A stretch of DNA of 63,323 nt from Candidatus Limnocylindrales bacterium (GTDB taxonomy: Bacteria; Chloroflexota; Limnocylindria; Limnocylindrales; CSP1-4). Both the position numbers and the translations under genes were made by a program. How positions within the stretch are numbered: the stretch's first letter is position 1; the number at the start of each line of letters is the position of its first letter. The stretch covers positions 1 to 63,323 of the forward strand of contig JBBQLI010000003.1 of the NCBI GenBank assembly GCA_038327765.1, in the 5' to 3' direction. This document shows, in pieces, positions 1,548-10,253 of this stretch. The notes under the pieces were generated by a model that worked only from the letters and a program-made list of their open reading frames with translations, made no database searches and was not told the origin of the DNA.

Positions 1548-2585
1548 CTACGGCGAGGCGGTCACCTTGATCGATGCCACCATCTGATGGAGCGCCACCT
1601 GGTCTGCCGCGTGGCGGGTCGGGTTCGGAGCGACGCCACCCAACTCGTAGGGCGATGTCTCGGGGAAGTCCGTCGTCCGGATGACAAGGAGCGTCCCGTT
1701 GACATCGAGGATCCTGAATTGGACCTTGTACGCCGTCTTGTCCGTAGAGGCGGAGTAGGCGAGTGGGTAGGCATCGACGACCCCGGACTGCTTCGTCGTC
1801 CAGATAGTTGCACCCGGGCAATGGGCCAACGTGACGCTTGACGTCAGCTCGACCAGCTGACCGCTGTAGCCGCTGACCACGATCGGCGTGGGCGCCGCGA
1901 CCCTGAAACCGGGCCACGCACGCATGGCGTTCACGAGCCCGTCGACCGTCGATGTAGTCACAGGATCAAGGGTCCCCTTCTTTGGATCGCACGGATCCTT
2001 GGAGACGGCACCGACCGTCATGAACATCAGACCCCAGCCGGAGCCGGACGCGGCGTCCGGGCGGTCGACGAGCACGCCCTCGAAGTCGCTCGCCGGCTCC
2101 CATTGGGACCAACCAGCCGGCACCTCCAGCGTGATCTGGCCGGGCCAGACCGACGAACTCAAGCCGTACCTACCAGGCTTGAGACACTGCGCCGTATCGA
2201 GGGGGCAGGTCACCACGGGCGCGCTACTCAGGGAGGCCAGCGAGGGCGTTGGTGTGGGCTCGGGTGTAGGCGTCGGCGTCGGCGTCGGCGATGCCGTTGC
2301 CGGGACCGAGCCGACCACCGGACTGACGCGTCCGTTGTTGACGAATGCCGCGCCGACGACGACGGCAGCCACCACGACGGCAGCCACCAATCCCCATCGA
2401 GCGCGAGTCGAAGCTCGTGTGATCATGTCAAGCATCCTTTCCGTCGACCGGGCAGGACGAACCTGTCCGGTCCGAGGCAGGCTGGCATGGATCGCGTCGA
2501 TGACGCGATCGGGGAGCGGCGTCACTCCGTCGAACGATTCGAGGTAGTCCTCCAATCGACCGATGAAGTCGTCGTCCTTGTTCAT
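1548..2585 (-). CDS. Membrane-anchored putative anti-sigma factor with a Pro/Thr linker and an extracytoplasmic domain
   Basis: Its ATG overlaps the stop of the upstream ECF sigma gene (ATGA at 2582-2585). It has a short cytoplasmic N-terminus, one TM segment (WGLVAAVVVAAVVVGAAFV), a PTPTPTPTPEPTPTP linker and a ~230-aa C-terminal domain. There is no zinc-finger HxxxCxxC motif. Confidence 0.65.
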   Translation of the reverse strand: MNKDDDFIGRLEDYLESFDGVTPLPDRVIDAIHASLPRTGQVRPARSTERMLDMITRASTRARWGLVAAVVVAAVVVGAAFVNNGRVSPVVGSVPATASPTPTPTPTPEPTPTPSLASLSSAPVVTCPLDTAQCLKPGRYGLSSSVWPGQITLEVPAGWSQWEPASDFEGVLVDRPDAASGSGWGLMFMTVGAVSKDPCDPKKGTLDPVTTSTVDGLVNAMRAWPGFRVAAPTPIVVSGYSGQLVELTSSVTLAHCPGATIWTTKQSGVVDAYPLAYSASTDKTAYKVQFRILDVNGTLLVIRTTDFPETSPYELGGVAPNPTRHAADQVALHQMVASIKVTASP

Positions 2586-3130
2586 GCCGTGCCCGCGTTC
2601 CTTTCCAGACGCGCTTCGGCCTCGAAGGCCTCGCGCAGGTATTTCAGTGCGTAGTGCAGGCGGGAGCGGACCGTGCCGATGGGCGTCCCCATCGCGGCGG
2701 CCGCTTCCGCTGGAGAGAGTCCGACGTAGTGAACGAGGACGACCACGGTCCGGTGCTCGACGCCGAGCCGCCGGAAGGCCTGATCGAGCAGCTGGCGCGT
2801 CGACACGCCCGCCGTCGGATCCGAGTCACCCGGTGCATCGAATTCGAGCAGCCGGAGGTTGCCGCGATGACGTCGCTCACGGCGCGCTTCGGCGTGACAC
2901 GCATTCACGAGAAGCCGGTAGGCCCACGCTTCGAACCGGTCCGGGTCCTTGAGCCGGGGCAGGCCCTGCCATGCGTCGAGCAATGCCCGTTGCGTGGCGT
3001 CCTCGGCCAGGTACGGGTCGCGCAGGATCCGACGCGCGACCGAATGGAGGTGGTCGCCCACGCGTTCGACCAAGGCGTCGAACGCCGCCTCATCGCCGTG
3101 CATCGCTTGCTCGACGAGGATCCGCTCCAT
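2582..3130 (-). CDS. ECF (sigma-70 family group 4) RNA polymerase sigma factor
   Basis: Region 2 pattern: DEAAFDALVERVGDHLHSVARRILRDPYLAEDATQRALLDAWQGLPRLKDPDRFEAWAYRLLVNAC. Region 4 HTH: VVVLVHYVGLSPAEAAAAMGTPIGTVRSRLHYALKYLR. Confidence 0.9.
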   Translation of the reverse strand: MERILVEQAMHGDEAAFDALVERVGDHLHSVARRILRDPYLAEDATQRALLDAWQGLPRLKDPDRFEAWAYRLLVNACHAEARRERRHRGNLRLLEFDAPGDSDPTAGVSTRQLLDQAFRRLGVEHRTVVVLVHYVGLSPAEAAAAMGTPIGTVRSRLHYALKYLREAFEAEARLERNAGTA

Positions 3131-3572: not shown

Positions 3573-4418
3573 ATGCATGCTCCAATCCGCCCGCGCAGCT
3601 CGCGCACGGCCCTCGCCGCACTCCTGGCGGCGGTCGCCCTGCTCGTCGCGACCGTGGGTCCGGCGGCAGCGCTCCCACCCGGCCCGCCCGTCGTCCCGGC
3701 GCTGACAGGGTTCGTCACCGACGCCTGCACCGGGCGGCCGATCCTCAGCGGCCTCGACGTGTCGGTCGTTGGTCCCGACGGCGGGATCCTGAAGCCGCCC
3801 AACCCGAACCGGCGTGGCCTGTTCAGCTTCCCGTCACTCGCGCCCGGTGCCTACCAGCTCCTCGTGTCCGCCCCCGGTTACGGCGCCCTCGGCGGCGACC
3901 CTGTCACCGGCGGCTCGCCCGGGGTCATGGTCACCCAGCCACCCGGCCCGCCCACCCTGCCGGCTGGCCAGAGTCTCTCGATCGGTCTGGTCCTCCGCAT
4001 CGGGCTGGCCCCGCTGGTCACCCCTGGCACCTGCAAGCCGCCCAACCCGAACCTGCCGTCCTTCGCCGGGCGGGGCGTCGACGCCGCTACCGGGCGCGGC
4101 CTGGCCGGGCTTGTCGTCGAGATGGCCCCCCTCGTCATCGACCCGACGACCGGAGCGCTACCCCCAGGTCCGCCGATCCTGCCGGCCTTCAGTCCGCTGT
4201 TCGGGTTCTTCGTCTTTCCGGACCTGGCGCCAGGCGACTACCTGTTCAGCGCATCGTCGCTCCGCCACACCAGCCTCGGTGCCGACCCGACCAAGCCACC
4301 AAACCCGAACGGCCCCGGGATCCTGGTGACCCTGCCCCCAGGTCCGCCGACCCTGCCGGCCGGCCAGAGCGTCAACGAAGGGCTGGTCATCTCCGTCTCC
4401 CTGCCCGCGGTGCAGTAG
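3573..4418 (+). CDS. Secreted repeat protein with carboxypeptidase-regulatory-like beta-sandwich repeats
   Basis: The ATG at 3573 lies 8 nt after GGAGG (3560-3564). Signal peptide: MHAPIRPRSSRTALAALLAAVALLVATVGPAAA. Internal repeats: KPPNPN three times, PPGPPTLPAGQS twice, and G(F/R)V(T/D)DA(C/A)TGR-type strands. Confidence 0.72.
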   Translation: MHAPIRPRSSRTALAALLAAVALLVATVGPAAALPPGPPVVPALTGFVTDACTGRPILSGLDVSVVGPDGGILKPPNPNRRGLFSFPSLAPGAYQLLVSAPGYGALGGDPVTGGSPGVMVTQPPGPPTLPAGQSLSIGLVLRIGLAPLVTPGTCKPPNPNLPSFAGRGVDAATGRGLAGLVVEMAPLVIDPTTGALPPGPPILPAFSPLFGFFVFPDLAPGDYLFSASSLRHTSLGADPTKPPNPNGPGILVTLPPGPPTLPAGQSVNEGLVISVSLPAVQ

Positions 4419-4764: not shown

Positions 4765-7700
4765 ATGTGGGTCTGGGGGCGGTTCCCGGTCGGCGTGGCG
4801 TCTATCGTCGTCATCGTCGCCCTGCTTCTCGCCGCCTGCAGCCCGACTCCCGCCCCCACACCTAGCCCAAGCCGTGGCCCGAGCACCCCGCCAGCCTCGC
4901 CCTCGCCCTCGCCGTCGGCCTCGACCCCAGCCCCGGCTTCGGGAGATCTGGCCCTCGAGGCCTGCGATGTCACCGGCTACGTTCCCTGCGAGCACCAGGC
5001 AGTCCGGCTTTCCCTGCCGATCGCCGGTACTGGTGCGGCCCTGACCTATTCGAGCGAATGGGCCGCCGGTCGCAAGGATCGCCAGGGCTGGGATGCCTCG
5101 GCCATCGGTCTTGGGGGCTGGTCGCTGGATATCCTGCAGCGATACGATCCGAAGGCCGGGGTGCTGCTCTCCGGCGACGGGTCGTGGCGGTTCGCGAAGG
5201 GCGTGACCCTGCCCTCGGGCGAGCACGCGGTGCCGACCTACGACGGCCTGATGGCCTACGTGTTCGACTCGAATGGGCGCCACGTGCGCACCGTCGATGC
5301 ACTCCTTGGTGTGACCCTGATCACGTTCTCCTACGACGCGGCCGGCCGGCTCTCCGGGGCAGACGGGACGCTGGCGAGCGCGCCGATCCACCTCGTCGTC
5401 GAGCGCGAGGCTGACGGGACGCTCGCCGGCCTCGTCGGGCTCGACGGGGCCCGGACGTCGCTCTTCCTCGGCAGCGACGGCCTTCTCGGCGGGATCCAGG
5501 ATCCGGCGGGCCGCACTACCGTCCTCGAATACGGGTCCGGCGGCCTTGTCACCAACTACGACGACGCGACAGGAGGTGTGACGGCGTACGGGTATGACGA
5601 CGCCGGTCGTCTGGTCTCCGCGAAGGACCCCGACGGCGTCACGGTGACGACGACCCGCACCACGACCGCCGATATGACCGAGGTCAAGTCGACCACGACC
5701 CTCGGCCGCTCGGTCGCCTACCGTGCGGAGCGAACGGGCGCCGGAGTGATCCGATCCTATGTGGCGCCCGATGGAACCCGGACGACCGTGTCCTCCGATC
5801 CATCTGGGCGGTACGCGGTCGCGCTTCCCGATGGGACGACGATCGCGCTAGGTTCGCAGGCCGACCCGCGCTGGGGGATGGACGCTCCGATCGCGACGCC
5901 GGTGGACCAGACGCGGCCGGATGGCGTCGTCCGGCACACGACCACCGCCATCACTGCGACGACCTCGGCCACCGACCCGCTCGCCGTCAGCGCCTGGTCC
6001 CGTACCGACATCATCGCTGGCGGGACATGGAACCAGATGGTGGACCCCGCCACGCGAACGATCACGTGGGCCGACCCTGCCAGCCGGAAGACCACCCAGA
6101 CGTACGACGCGTCCGGTCGGATGGTCTCGCAGACCAGGCCGGGACAGCCCAGCCTTGCGTTCGTCTACGACGGACACGGCCGGCTTGCCACGAGAACCTT
6201 GGGGAGCGGCGCTGCCACCGCCACGACCACCTTCACCTACGGAACAGACGGCACCCTGACCATCACGGGTCCCGACCAGCTCGTCCAGCATCTGACGGCC
6301 GACTCCGTCGGACAGATCGTCCGCCGGACAGCTGCGGACGGCTCGACGGTCCTGTCCGCGTATGACGGGCTTGGGCGGCTCGTGCGCGTGGCACCCGCTG
6401 GCCAGCCATCCACCACCATCGGCTATAGCGCCGCCGGACGGCAGACCGGGTTCCTGCCTCCGACCATCGGCGCCGATGGCTCCTACGAGGTGCGAACGTA
6501 CGACACGGACGGGAGGTTGGCGGCCATCGCGGGACCTGGTCAGCGCTCGATCGCGTATACGCGCGACGCGGCTGGCCGCATCACCGGCTGGACCTTCGAC
6601 CAGGGCACGGCCACGGCCGTCTACGATCCGACCACAGGACTTGTCGTGAAGACCGCTGCGCCTGGTGGGATCGACACGCTGGTCTCGTACGTGGGCGGGA
6701 TCCGGGTCGGTCGCAACGTGTCCGGCCCGGTCGTCGGCGCGGTGGCCGTGAGCCTCGACCCGTTCGGCCGGATGGCCGGCGTGTCGGTCGATGGGGCGCC
6801 GCCGATCGGCTACACGTACGACACGGTCGGCTACCTCACGAGCGTGGGGGACGTCTCCCTGCAACGCGACCCGGCGAGCGGTCAAGTCGCGGGAGCATCC
6901 CTTGGCACTGGGCGGACCACACGCGAGTACGACGCCCAGGGGCGACCGACGCACATCGTCACAGCCGCGAACGGTTCGTCGGCCATGCTCGACGCTCGCT
7001 ATGCGTACGACCTGCGCGGGCGCGTCACGAGCGTGACCGAGGTGCGCGGCGGCGGCAAACCGACGAACACGACCTACGCATACGACGATGCGGGGCGTCT
7101 GGCCGAGGTCTCCGTGAACGGGATCTCTGTCGAGCGCGACGGCTACGACGCGGCCGGTAACCGCGTTTCCGTGAAGACCTCCTCCGGTACGCTCAAGGCC
7201 ACGTACGACGACCGCGACCGGTTGCTCTCCTGGGGGGCGGCCAGGTACGTCTCTCGGCCGGACGGGCAGCTCGCGAGCGTGGCCGCCGGGGACGCCAACA
7301 CCCGCTTCACGTTCGACGACTTCGGAGTCCTGCGAGCGGTAGCCCTCCCGGACGGGCGGCGGATCGAGTACTTCGTTGACGCGGGGGGCGCGCGGATCGG
7401 GAAGAGGATCGACGGCACGCTCGTGGCGGGCTATCTCTACCGGCCCGACGGTGCCCTTGCGGCGCAGACCGACGGCAGCGGCGCCGTGGTCGCGCGCTTC
7501 GGCTATGACGATGCCGGGCGGCTCACGCTCGTCGAGCGCGGGGGCACGCGCTACCAGGTGGTCACCGATCGCCTCAGCAGTCCGCTCCTCGTCATCGACG
7601 CGGGTACTGGCGCCGTGGCTGAGGCCATCACCTACGATGCTTGGGGCCAAGTCACCTCCGATACGAACCCGGGCTTCATCCCGATCGGTTTCGCCGGCGG

Positions 7701-9576
7701 GCTGCGCGATGCGGATACGGGTCTGGTCAGGTTCGGGGCGCGCGAATACGACCCGCGAACCGGCCGCTGGACCGGGCCCGACCCGATTCAGTACGCCGGC
7801 GCAGACTCGGTCCTCTACCGATACGTGGCGAATGATCCGGTCAACGGGACTGACCCGACGGGTCTCGCCTCATACGCGCACCAGCCGCCGGAATTCACGC
7901 CACCTCCGAGGGACGGAGGTCGATCGCATTTTCCGAGGTTGGGTAGCAAGGATCCCGAGGGCTCGAACCCGACACCGACCGGCGGCGAATGCTCGAACGA
8001 CGGCTCCGGCTGCAACCGCGGCGCTCATGCGCAGCCGCCGGATGATCCCGGCCCTGGGACCGGCCCCGGCCTCCCGCCACCGCCACGTGGCAGTGCACCC
8101 TTCACGTGCTTCGGGGTATGCAAGATGCCGGACGGCACAACCTGCTACGGGTACTGCCACAGCGGCGAACCACACGAACGGTCCGGTGACGGCGTCCCAT
8201 TCGAGTTCCAGGCGGCCGGCGAGTTCCAGATGGTCGCCTCGCCAGACCGGAGTGTCGTCATCCAGGCCCGCCTGGAACCGTACGGCACCTCGAACCGCGT
8301 GACGCTTGGCACCGCGGTCGCGGCTTCGGTGGCCGGCGATCGCGTGGCGGTCTATGCGAGCGACAAGGTGCCGCTTGCGATCGCGGGCAAGCCGGATACC
8401 CGACCCGATCTCTCGGTGCGCCTGCCGCATGGTGGGATCGTGGAGCGCCATGGCCCGGTCGTCACGATCTCATGGCCCGGCGGCAGCCAGCTCACCGTCT
8501 CGCGTGCCGGAAGCCACCTTGACTTCTCATTCGACCCGGATGCAGCAACAGCGCCGACACTCCGCGGCCTGCTCGGCAGTGCTGACGGCAACCCGACGAA
8601 CGATTTCACGACACGTGACGGCACCGTGATCGCCCACGACGATCCGGCGTTCGCCACGAAGGTCTATGACCTGTTCGGGGCAAGCTGGCGGATCACGCAG
8701 TCCGAGTCGCTCTTCGACTACGGGCCGGGCCAGAGCACGGCCACGTACACCAAGCCGGCGATCCCCACGGCACCGGCGACGATCGATGCGCTCGATACGA
8801 CGGCGCGCGGCAACGCGGAGACGCTCTGCCGCGCGATGGGCGTGAGCCTCGAACCCGTCCTGACCGACTGCATCCTTGATGTGGGGCTCACGGGCGACTC
8901 GTCATATGCGGCGTCCGCCGCCGCGGTCCAGGTGTCCACCACACGGGCCGCCGCCGAGCCCCCGGGCGCGGCAGCCGGGGCGTCCACGTTCGACCAGAAG
9001 GTCAGCGGCACGATCACGAAGCCTTCGCAGGTCGACAAGACGACCTTCACCGCGAAGGCCGGCGATGTGGTCTACCTCCGCGCCCAGGGAGTCTGCGTGC
9101 CGGGTCTGCAGTGGCAGCTCGTCGCTCCGTCCGGCACCCACCTCGGCCTCGACTACCTCTGCCGCGACCTGGGCCGCTTCGTGCTCCCGGACGCGGGCAC
9201 GTACACGGTCGAGGTCAACTGGGACCAGACGACGACCGGAGGGTATGCGTTCGAGATCATCGGTGCGCCCGTCGAGCGCATCGCGGCCTACAGGGTCGGC
9301 CAGACCATCAGCGATACGACGACCCGGATCGGCGAGTGGCACCGCTACACGTTCACGGCAAAGGCCGGCGATGTCGTGGTCCTCGACGGCCTGGGCGCCT
9401 GCGTCGACGGGCTGCTGTGGCGGCTCGTCGGCCCAGCTGGCAACATCATCCTGGGCCACTCGTGCGACGACCTGGGCCGGGTCGTGCTCCCCGACGGGGG
9501 CACCTACGGGGTCGAGGTCTATTCCGACGGCACCGCTACAGGGGCCTACGCATTCCAGGTCCGCGCCGGCCCGTGA
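4765..9576 (+). CDS. Lipoprotein-anchored RHS/YD-repeat protein with a vWD-like plus 2x PPC-like C-terminal region
   Basis: Lipobox VALLLAAC followed by a Pro/Thr/Ser linker. There are dozens of YD repeats (YDAAGRL, YDDAGRLV, YDASGRM, YDGHGRL, YDTDGRL and others). RHS core: RFGAREYDPRTGRWTGPDPIQY...NDPVNGTDPTGL, ending at aa 1034 (nt 7866). This is followed by 569 aa containing GEPH (aa 1134-1137, vWD GDPH-like) and two ~70-aa repeats (TFTAKAGDVV...GGYAFEI / GAYAFQV). Confidence 0.9.
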   Translation: MWVWGRFPVGVASIVVIVALLLAACSPTPAPTPSPSRGPSTPPASPSPSPSASTPAPASGDLALEACDVTGYVPCEHQAVRLSLPIAGTGAALTYSSEWAAGRKDRQGWDASAIGLGGWSLDILQRYDPKAGVLLSGDGSWRFAKGVTLPSGEHAVPTYDGLMAYVFDSNGRHVRTVDALLGVTLITFSYDAAGRLSGADGTLASAPIHLVVEREADGTLAGLVGLDGARTSLFLGSDGLLGGIQDPAGRTTVLEYGSGGLVTNYDDATGGVTAYGYDDAGRLVSAKDPDGVTVTTTRTTTADMTEVKSTTTLGRSVAYRAERTGAGVIRSYVAPDGTRTTVSSDPSGRYAVALPDGTTIALGSQADPRWGMDAPIATPVDQTRPDGVVRHTTTAITATTSATDPLAVSAWSRTDIIAGGTWNQMVDPATRTITWADPASRKTTQTYDASGRMVSQTRPGQPSLAFVYDGHGRLATRTLGSGAATATTTFTYGTDGTLTITGPDQLVQHLTADSVGQIVRRTAADGSTVLSAYDGLGRLVRVAPAGQPSTTIGYSAAGRQTGFLPPTIGADGSYEVRTYDTDGRLAAIAGPGQRSIAYTRDAAGRITGWTFDQGTATAVYDPTTGLVVKTAAPGGIDTLVSYVGGIRVGRNVSGPVVGAVAVSLDPFGRMAGVSVDGAPPIGYTYDTVGYLTSVGDVSLQRDPASGQVAGASLGTGRTTREYDAQGRPTHIVTAANGSSAMLDARYAYDLRGRVTSVTEVRGGGKPTNTTYAYDDAGRLAEVSVNGISVERDGYDAAGNRVSVKTSSGTLKATYDDRDRLLSWGAARYVSRPDGQLASVAAGDANTRFTFDDFGVLRAVALPDGRRIEYFVDAGGARIGKRIDGTLVAGYLYRPDGALAAQTDGSGAVVARFGYDDAGRLTLVERGGTRYQVVTDRLSSPLLVIDAGTGAVAEAITYDAWGQVTSDTNPGFIPIGFAGGLRDADTGLVRFGAREYDPRTGRWTGPDPIQYAGADSVLYRYVANDPVNGTDPTGLASYAHQPPEFTPPPRDGGRSHFPRLGSKDPEGSNPTPTGGECSNDGSGCNRGAHAQPPDDPGPGTGPGLPPPPRGSAPFTCFGVCKMPDGTTCYGYCHSGEPHERSGDGVPFEFQAAGEFQMVASPDRSVVIQARLEPYGTSNRVTLGTAVAASVAGDRVAVYASDKVPLAIAGKPDTRPDLSVRLPHGGIVERHGPVVTISWPGGSQLTVSRAGSHLDFSFDPDAATAPTLRGLLGSADGNPTNDFTTRDGTVIAHDDPAFATKVYDLFGASWRITQSESLFDYGPGQSTATYTKPAIPTAPATIDALDTTARGNAETLCRAMGVSLEPVLTDCILDVGLTGDSSYAASAAAVQVSTTRAAAEPPGAAAGASTFDQKVSGTITKPSQVDKTTFTAKAGDVVYLRAQGVCVPGLQWQLVAPSGTHLGLDYLCRDLGRFVLPDAGTYTVEVNWDQTTTGGYAFEIIGAPVERIAAYRVGQTISDTTTRIGEWHRYTFTAKAGDVVVLDGLGACVDGLLWRLVGPAGNIILGHSCDDLGRVVLPDGGTYGVEVYSDGTATGAYAFQVRAGP

Positions 9577-9620: not shown

Positions 9621-10253
9621 TCAGAGGCGAGCCAGGATCGCCTTCGCTAGGTCGATCACGCTCTGCTGTAGAACACCCGCGTCGAGCGTGTCCTTGTTCT
9701 TCACGCCGATCGTCAGCATCCCCCCGGGAACCTGGACGTGGAACGTACCCAGGCTGGCCGCGTAATAGGCCTCGGCACCGAGGCCATCCACCTGTGTGAC
9801 GGCGTCGCCGATCGACGCCTTGATCGCTGCATACGTGACGTACTTGGCATCGAAGAACACGCGGATGCCCACCGGGCTGTCGCCCGGGCCGCCCGCCTTG
9901 ACCTTGCCAGACACGTCGAACGTACACACCCCGTATTGCCCCGCCTGGCCGTCCGTGGACGAGCCGCCGAAGGCGGCTTCAACGTCGGCCTTCGTCGCCA
10001 CCGAGCACGAGTCCGCTGGGTTTCCGGCCGTGTTTGAGGATGCGCCTGCGCTCGACGGGGCCTTCGATGGCGCCGCGCTCGTTGCGGCGCCCGTGGACGC
10101 GGCACTGGAGGCAGCAGGCGCGGGAACGCTCCCGCCGGTACAGGCCGCGAGAACGGTCACGAGGACCAGTGCGCCGGCGAGTCCGCGGCGCCCGGTCAGG
10201 CCGGCGAATGGAGCGCCGCCTGGATCGGAGCTTTTCAGCGAAAGCAGACGCAT
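9621..10253 (-). CDS. Secreted lipoprotein, function unknown
   Basis: Lipobox LVTVLAAC followed by an Ala/Ser/Pro linker and a ~130-aa globular domain. It is convergent with the RHS gene, with a 44-bp gap. Confidence 0.72.
   Translation of the reverse strand: MRLLSLKSSDPGGAPFAGLTGRRGLAGALVLVTVLAACTGGSVPAPAASSAASTGAATSAAPSKAPSSAGASSNTAGNPADSCSVATKADVEAAFGGSSTDGQAGQYGVCTFDVSGKVKAGGPGDSPVGIRVFFDAKYVTYAAIKASIGDAVTQVDGLGAEAYYAASLGTFHVQVPGGMLTIGVKNKDTLDAGVLQQSVIDLAKAILARL

Follow-up and report, generated by a model that had tools for sequence, protein, structure and literature searches.

A predicted self-cleaving RHS/YD-shell lipoprotein, found mostly in Chloroflexota, carries a conserved vWD-C8-PPC tail in place of a toxin tip

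The accepted view of RHS/YD cages is that they enclose small toxins that can be swapped, and a recombination breakpoint after the DPxGL motif is the signature of such polymorphic toxins; the celebrated case of a cage that became an adhesion receptor is that of the teneurins in animals. In the bacterial teneurin-like protein (TLP) of Bacillus inaquosorum (BiTLP), which contains the triad R2103, D2116 and D2140, cleavage after L2144 has been demonstrated, and the shell cavity of ~44,000 Å3 is the feature to which the authors ascribe the limited size of TLP C-terminal domains (CTDs), which average ~15 kDa (PMC13018210). The DPxG cleavage motif is absent from mammalian teneurins, which are not cleaved (PMC13018210). 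Here we analyzed a 63,323-nucleotide (nt) stretch of DNA, called the window below, from Candidatus Limnocylindrales bacterium (Chloroflexota; assembly GCA_038327765.1, contig JBBQLI010000003.1, positions 1 to 63,323 of the forward strand). One of its genes (4765-9576, + strand), delimited as an open reading frame (ORF) and annotated with Pfam and NCBIfam, encodes a 1603-amino-acid (aa) RHS/YD-shell lipoprotein whose tail consists of a vWD domain, a C8-like module and two PPC-like repeats. On balance, we favor reading this protein as a surface-tethered, self-cleaving, non-polymorphic YD/RHS cage that displays a binding module, rather than as part of a toxin-immunity system.

The shell is recognizable both by sequence and by predicted fold. 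Pfam and NCBIfam returned 12 matches to RHS_repeat PF05593 (145 bits), together with TIGR01643 (126 bits) and TEN_YD-shell PF25023 (91 bits). A conserved N-terminal cap (LALEACDxxGYVPCEHQ, with Cys67 and Cys75) opens the YD/RHS beta-cocoon (aa 61-956, 4945-7632; all features of the protein lie on the + strand), which is followed by the Rhs-associated core (aa 957-1034, 7633-7866; TIGR03696, 73 bits against a cut-off of 32.5). The core terminates in NDPVNGTDPTGL (aa 1023-1034, with DPTGL extending up to aa 1034), exactly where a preliminary description of this stretch, made from the letters alone, had placed its end. An AlphaFold2 (AF2) model of aa 61-1260, built with 50 homologues, gave a confident cocoon (predicted template modeling score, pTM, 0.81; predicted local distance difference test, pLDDT, mostly >90), and with ~880 residues of YD repeats the shell is comparable in size to that of BiTLP. 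The best Foldseek match was BiTLP itself (PDB 9ifo; E = 5.6e-73, template modeling (TM) score 0.70, 29% identity), followed in order by metazoan teneurins (TM 0.61-0.70), the cocoons of type VI secretion system (T6SS) Rhs effectors (RhsA, Tse15, Tse5 and RhsP; TM 0.37-0.54) and Tc toxins. We found no TTR, FN-plug or NHL domains preceding the shell, as Pfam gave only RHS_repeat and TEN_YD-shell in aa 61-345; the same run detected TTR_TEN1-4, FN-plug and TEN_NHL in two TLP relatives (P0180 and P0181; P and L numbers are our handles for proteins and loci). The earlier suggestion that the layout is nearer to teneurins than to bacterial polymorphic toxins therefore stands for the shell, which ranks closest to 9ifo and teneurins and ahead of T6SS Rhs proteins, but not for the missing TTR, FN-plug and NHL domains or for the protease, whose triad is retained.

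That triad consists of R993, D1006 and D1030 (codons at nt 7741-7743, 7780-7782 and 7852-7854), which are invariant across 50 aligned family members. Its spacing, 13/24, is identical to that of the BiTLP residues. Because of this invariance and spacing, cleavage is predicted after L1034, at the end of DPTGL, and is probably retained and under selection.

The tail beyond the predicted cleavage site is 569 aa long (nt 7867-9573; 59.0 kDa, with a folded part of 49.4 kDa), as had been described. In an AF2 model from 40 homologues (mean pLDDT 80.6), tail residues 1-94 were disordered and residues 100-569 nearly all had pLDDT >90, forming a beta-sandwich, a five-helix module and two further beta-sandwiches in that order. 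The disordered segment is a Gly/Pro-rich linker (aa 1035-1129, 95 aa, 7867-8151; pLDDT <50) that holds Cys1076 and Cys1083 and the start of a C-x3-C-x7-C-x3-C knot (Cys1115, 1119, 1127 and 1131; nt 8107-8157). Linkers across the family are 58-149 aa long and contain 18% Gly, 17% Pro and 5% Cys, in keeping with the Pro/Gly-rich, Cys-containing opening noticed earlier. In the family alignment, the four knot cysteines are nearly invariant, and the linker is otherwise low-complexity, length-variable and unconserved.

We identified the first beta-sandwich (~aa 1130-1290, 8152-8634) as a vWD domain. The single-sequence PF00094 score was 19.9-22.0 bits, slightly below the cut-off of 22.9, and relatives reached 41-51 bits, above it, and also touched RGM_C. 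A profile of 14 family sequences matched the vWD of FCGBP at E = 7.6e-46 over six matched stretches, and the collagenase collagen-binding domain 5sv5 at E = 0.03. Searched against the PDB with Foldseek, the model matched the D assemblies of VWF, MUC2, MUC5AC and FCGBP (E ~1e-11) over ~290 columns covering both vWD and C8. Since relatives pass the Pfam cut-off, the family profile matches FCGBP and the AF2 model matches D assemblies, the vWD assignment is secure. The alignment also places GEPH (aa 1134-1137, nt 8164-8175) at the position of the GDPH self-cleavage motif, precisely as the preliminary description had it.

Between the vWD domain and the repeats lies a part that the preliminary description, which took the tail to be vWD plus two repeats, had missed: a C8-like or RGM_C-like helical module (~aa 1291-1395, 8635-8949), recognized from the AF2 helices, from D3 alignments and from RGM_C matches in relatives. 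Its two cysteines, the pair Cys1355-Cys1369, are both invariant. TIL and E modules are absent from the tail, and PPC-like repeats come after the C8-like part. The repeats, defined by AF2, Foldseek and self-comparison, are PPC/collagen-binding-domain-like beta-sandwiches at aa 1408-1502 (8986-9270) and aa 1510-1603 (9292-9573), the second being the C-terminal end of the protein. They are 53% identical to each other (E = 1e-30), which confirms the tandem repeat seen earlier, but each is ~95 aa long instead of ~70 and the bounds shift accordingly. The PPC resemblance holds by fold, as the tandem matches the ColG collagen-binding domains s3a-s3b (5iku, E = 8e-10), but is weak by sequence (PF04151, 16 bits, where the cut-off is 25.9); precomputed annotation assigns PF04151 to some relatives. 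A wider search for the repeat gave 5560 representatives at E <= 1e-3, and arrays of 10-21 copies of it occur in giant proteins of 2000-7500 aa (P0217, P0224, P0226, P0228 and others) that are probably giant adhesins.

As the preliminary description had claimed, no toxin domain is detectable in the tail by Pfam or NCBIfam, which returned only vWD and the weak PPC match. The 700-990-aa tails of relatives likewise concealed no toxin domains by Pfam, only further copies of the same repeat.

A survey of homologues, proposed together with that claim, showed how the tail is distributed. Searching with the tail recovered 95 relatives, most with PF00094, in which the N-terminal partner was an RHS shell, Peptidase_M91 (in Micromonospora, Streptomyces and others), M48, a C-type lectin, LCCL or BNR. 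A genome scan with the 14-sequence alignment found the RHS-vWD architecture in ~30 species-representative genomes, mostly Chloroflexota (Candidatus Limnocylindrales and "Chloroflexia" metagenome-assembled genomes (MAGs)), with further hosts among Dormibacterota, some Actinomycetota and Acidobacteriota, and one cyanobacterium. A query joining shell and vWD returned ~70 clusters of full-length proteins, 1550-2007 aa long. Down to a shell identity of 42% with the window protein, all full-length proteins carry the vWD tail (530-990 aa), and the next-nearest shells (34-39% identity) belong to TLPs with TTR, FN-plug and NHL, whose tails are just 38-181 aa long. The window protein is thus not a one-off oddity but a member of a large conserved family, with at least 70 sequence clusters that come mainly from Chloroflexota (Limnocylindria) and Dormibacterota.

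Shell and tail vary together in this family. Over the ~30 genomes, shell/tail identities to the window protein include 69.7/71.2, 68.3/71.6, 74.5/70.9, 48.9/52.6, 50.2/47.8, 38.2/30.5 and 35.0/35.2%. Because the two values move together, there is no recombination breakpoint after DPxGL, and by these comparisons shell and tail co-evolved as a single unit in which the tail is not a swappable tip. Tail length varies solely by the number of repeats (two in 35 proteins, three in 25, four in nine, five in two and one in two), and the last repeat is always the end of the protein. Columns of the family alignment average 40% identity, and dozens of shell residues are invariant. Relatives are labeled in databases as "RHS repeat-associated core domain-containing protein" or "VWD domain-containing protein", and in the literature we searched we found no paper combining RHS/YD proteins with vWD.

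Several individual loci were recorded in the course of the survey. One Limnocylindrales MAG (JBEKMM010000014.1) holds two paralogous RHS-vWD genes ~13 kb apart on opposite strands (L009, 6740-11659, and L025, 6770-11608), 50% and 74% identical to the window protein, and other MAGs also carry two copies (L006/L028 and L018/L045). In the closest genomic relative (L001, 78% tail identity), two genes were called at the start of the contig (2-1624 and 1668-3812), a split due to a frameshift, to pseudogenization or to misassembly. The cyanobacterial locus, from the cultured strain Anabaenopsis tanganyikae CS-531 (L071, 343-7251), shows the architecture in a more divergent form, a 2302-aa ORF with the Rhs core DPxGL at ~aa 1255, a vWD with NDPH and a long additional C-terminal region.

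GDPH is nearly universal in the broader vWD family and is the family consensus where the window protein has GEPH. Among 50 members of the RHS-linked clade, the site reads GDPH in 20, GEPH in 17 (including the window protein), GDTH in eight, SDPH in three, and GDIH and GDVH in one each, so the Asp-Pro bond is kept in 23 and missing in 27; the His is invariant. FCGBP is cleaved between Asp and Pro via an Asp anhydride, a GDPH-to-GAPH change blocks this cleavage, and a disulfide spans the site (PMC8267560). In the window protein, no Cys occurs between aa 1132 and 1354, and hence none inside the vWD sandwich, which rules out a disulfide across the GD/PH site. Judging from these motifs, GD/PH self-cleavage has probably been lost in the window protein and is probably dispensable in the clade.

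The size of the tail bears on where it would lie. The whole tail requires at least 71,000 Å3 and its folded part ~60,000 Å3. Because this exceeds the cavity of the homologous BiTLP shell, from which the cavity figure is taken, the folded tail would lie outside the shell, and by the same volume comparison at most the 58-149-aa linker would fit inside. The N-terminus, in turn, points to the cell surface. As had been proposed, it is a Sec/lipoprotein signal (4765-4839), read from the sequence as MWVWGRFPVGVASIVVIVALLLAAC with the lipobox L-A-A-C and Cys25 as the predicted lipidation site; lipobox-type N-termini are present in most of 49 relatives. A Pro/Ser/Thr-rich stalk (aa 26-60, 4840-4944), seen in the sequence and in relatives, leads from it to the shell. 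The 14 cysteines outside the lipobox form seven close pairs (67/75, 1076/1083, 1115/1119, 1127/1131, 1355/1369, 1444/1466 and 1546/1567), none within the shell, an arrangement that fits an oxidized, extracellular protein.

A binding role for the module is suggested by its binding-type folds, by its fusions to secreted hydrolases and lectins, and by the arrays of 10-21 repeat copies in giant proteins; the Cys pairs outside the shell and the conserved lipoprotein signals suggest that this role would be extracellular. An adhesion role has also been proposed by Aravind and co-workers for the first bacterial vWD to be called, which lies in predatory toxin proteins (PMC12419801). We therefore propose the following course of events, each step of which is predicted from sequence and models. 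The protein would be exported and lipidated through Sec and signal peptidase II, giving a lipid anchor in an envelope that, in Chloroflexota, is probably monoderm. The cocoon would then fold on the outer face of the membrane, and the Rhs aspartyl protease would cut after L1034. Only the start of the flexible linker would stay lodged in the cage, leaving the 49-kDa folded vWD-C8-PPC module outside it, like the C-terminal domains of teneurins. There, whether it stays on the cage or is shed, the module may bind or adhere to a polymer or to the surface of another cell.

The genes beside the locus were consistent with this proposal. The gene immediately 3′ of the window protein is on the opposite strand, as already noticed: it is convergent, encodes a DUF3558 lipoprotein (9621-10253, - strand) and has an ABC (ATP-binding cassette) transporter beyond it. 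The first gene downstream was compared across 32 loci and proved heterogeneous in strand, size and family, about half of these genes lying on the opposite strand; examples include a hybrid histidine kinase, a LeuC-like protein, a luciferase-like oxidoreductase, a LuxR regulator, an extracytoplasmic function (ECF) sigma factor and TetR. Thus, an ORF-based comparison of the 32 loci found no conserved downstream immunity gene, in agreement with the preliminary description. This neighborhood argument is supportive, not conclusive, and the non-polymorphic tail is the stronger argument against a toxin-immunity pair.

Several observations weigh against a displayed binding module. An intact autoprotease is a hallmark of Rhs toxins that release cargo, not of scaffolds, and why such a module would keep an invariant self-cleaving site is a puzzle. 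In the AF2 shell model, the disordered stretch spans aa 1021-1147, so that not only the linker but even the last core residues are of low confidence. The positive control for the immunity-gene search was modest, as a small overlapping downstream gene was present in one of three TLP-type relatives (L084) and none was called in the other two. A DUF3558-type lipoprotein gene adjoins the RHS-vWD gene in three of ~32 loci (the window, L008 and L022), which is above expectation, although too few for a partner. Finally, neither bacterial vWD domains nor these PPC-like repeats have a ligand known to us.

The invariant triad raises the question of whether the protein is still a toxin-delivery Rhs, in which the cleaved vWD-C8-PPC tail is an effector released against eukaryotic grazers, fungi or foreign surfaces; with a target absent from the producer, no immunity would be needed, and the arrangement would parallel the cargoes of TcC. 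The nearest solved relative, BiTLP, does bear a toxic CTD, actinomycetes have the vWD module joined to M91 peptidases of the effector type, and Aravind and co-workers assign bacterial vWD to predatory toxin proteins, although as the adhesion part (PMC12419801). Yet neither Pfam nor NCBIfam detects a catalytic or pore-forming domain, the folds are those of binding modules, the tail exceeds the size for encapsulation, and variation in repeat number is typical of adhesins. In the M91 fusions, moreover, the likely effector is the enzyme, not the vWD. We regard a released effector as unlikely, while giving it some weight.

Two other explanations move the function elsewhere or deny it. The real cargo might be the Gly/Pro/Cys-rich segment between DPxGL and GD/PH, a ~100-aa Cys-knotted peptide excised where both sites are intact, with the vWD-PPC part as an external handle or targeting module. 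At ~9.6 kDa the linker fits the cavity, the four cysteines just ahead of GDPH are nearly invariant, and Asp-Pro is kept at the vWD site in 23 of 50 members. However, the window protein itself has GEPH, the other 27 members lack Asp-Pro, and GDPH-to-GAPH abolishes cleavage of FCGBP (PMC8267560); besides its Cys knot, the linker is low-complexity, 58-149 aa long and unconserved. We consider an excised peptide very improbable. Even less credence attaches to a decaying or domesticated relic, that is, an old Rhs toxin gene that lost its tip by fusion with a downstream vWD gene and whose shell is now functionless. The erosion of GDPH in the RHS-linked clade and the two ORFs of the closest relative in one MAG would fit such decay, but the full-length architecture is kept in at least 70 clusters from several phyla, the mean column identity and the invariant shell residues are as given above, and the triad, Cys pairs and lipobox are intact, a pattern of conservation that argues for strong purifying selection on both halves.

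The only recurrent neighbors of RHS-vWD genes are regulators, LAL-type LuxR in nine loci and ECF sigma factors in five, which suggests dedicated regulation of the gene. The LAL-type proteins are large AAA_16-TPR-GerE regulators, and LuxR-type genes occur in L006, L014, L020, L021, L023, L025 and others. On the 5′ side in the window lie a small secreted CarboxypepD_reg protein and a divergent pair formed by the ECF sigma factor and a putative anti-sigma factor. The sigma gene (2582-3130, - strand) overlaps a 345-aa ORF (1548-2585, - strand) that has no Pfam match and probably encodes the anti-sigma factor, and the pair is divergent from the locus; homologues of this sigma factor lie near RHS-vWD genes in L003, L010, L014 and L072. 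The small secreted protein (3573-4418, + strand; ORF listed from 3309) has two CarboxypepD_reg-like domains and PPGPP/KPPNPN repeats, its true start is likely Met89 (nt 3573), followed by a signal peptide, and it is 83% identical to a protein encoded at 5275-6120 of L001, 1.4 kb downstream of the closest RHS-vWD relative. The DUF3558-type genes of the distant relatives L008 (2159-2830, +) and L022 (11320-11928, +) lie on the same strand as the RHS-vWD gene, 10 and 126 nt downstream. We rejected the DUF3558 lipoprotein as an immunity gene or conserved partner, given its presence in three of ~32 loci, the differing strands and other matches that are weak and low-complexity, and keep it as a lead.

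The RHS-vWD gene has a GC content at third codon positions of 0.84 in a window of 69% GC, and a Shine-Dalgarno-like GGAGAGGG directly 5′ of its ATG. No second RHS or vWD copy was found within the 63-kb window, and neither tRNA genes nor Rfam families at threshold were found between 1 and 63,323; promoter and terminator scans of the window were uninformative in DNA of this GC content.

In the RHS-vWD family, most of whose members come from uncultured soil and peat Chloroflexota, the predicted self-cleaving cage is kept and the toxin/immunity pair is replaced by a co-evolving vWD-C8-PPC module. This is a concrete bacterial case for a YD cage used without a toxin and a warning for annotation, as a protein labeled "RHS repeat-associated core domain-containing protein" is not always a toxin. 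If the module lies outside the cage, then bacteria already use the YD cage as a surface scaffold, a role of Rhs autoproteolysis beyond toxin release becomes testable, and a tractable bacterial model for vWD/GDPH biochemistry is at hand. It is also possible, although we hold this only tentatively, that bacteria evolved their own non-toxin, teneurin-style YD cage, lipid-anchored and self-cleaving, which displays or sheds a D-assembly-like adhesion module with one to five collagen-binding-domain-like repeats. If true, the family would offer a living example of the transition from toxin cage to adhesion receptor postulated for teneurin origins, and would place the vWD fold, first noted in bacteria only in 2025, in a context not reported before.

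Set beside known systems, the window protein is a genuine RHS/YD core-family protein that lacks defining features of polymorphic toxins, of TLPs, of teneurins and of a complete D assembly. With the classical Rhs/YD toxins (T6SS Rhs proteins, WapA of B. subtilis and TcB-TcC) it has in common the RHS repeats, the core, the DPxGL autoprotease and the cocoon fold. Unlike them, it is devoid of PAAR, VgrG and LXG trafficking domains and has no variable tip or breakpoint, no toxin domain and no conserved immunity gene, and its tail is ~4 times the size of a typical cargo. The TLPs provide the closest solved shell (BiTLP, PDB 9ifo) and the next-nearest sequence relatives, and share the Arg/Asp/Asp geometry and a Sec or lipoprotein-type surface targeting. 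They differ in having TTR, FN-plug and NHL, and their CTDs are short (~15 kDa; 38-181 aa in our set), diverse, encapsulated, toxic and paired with immunity genes (PMC13018210; Raoelijaona et al. 2026), whereas RHS-vWD tails are 530-990 aa long, conserved and made of binding folds, without a conserved partner gene.

Metazoan teneurins have a similar YD-shell fold (TM 0.61-0.70) and, like the window protein, function without a polymorphic toxin tip. Large folded domains follow their shell, lie outside it and serve adhesion (PMC13018210); the likeness is one of appended domains, known for the window protein from sequence and models. Teneurins have lost the DPxG motif and are uncleaved, whereas the window protein family keeps an invariant triad. 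They also sit in the membrane as type II proteins and combine EGF, TTR, FN-plug and NHL domains with an ABD/Tox-GHH tail; the window protein is a lipoprotein with a vWD/C8/PPC tail.

The tail has its own relatives. With VWF, MUC2, MUC5AC, FCGBP and RGM it shares the vWD beta-sandwich and a C8-like helical module, and with FCGBP also a Cys 4-5 residues ahead of the GDPH-position motif. Unlike animal D assemblies (vWD-C8-TIL-E), it has no TIL or E, a single disulfide in its C8-like part, a Cys-free vWD sandwich, and GEPH. Among bacterial proteins, a myxobacterial zincin-SAA-vWD protein was called "the first bacterial example" of vWD in 2025 (PMC12419801). The same C-terminal module as in the window protein occurs in secreted actinomycete VWD proteins (P0025, P0028, P0033 and others; L053, L067, L069, L079 and L081) with the order Peptidase_M91-vWD-C8-PPCx2, for example in Micromonospora, at 30-37% identity over ~470 aa, and in one Gemmatimonadota protein M48 takes the place of M91 on the vWD module. 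The actinomycete proteins likewise hold the Cys knot, the GDPH position, the C8-like part and the two PPC-like repeats, but they carry a small NleD-like M91 metallopeptidase in place of the YD shell, and their GDPH is almost always canonical.

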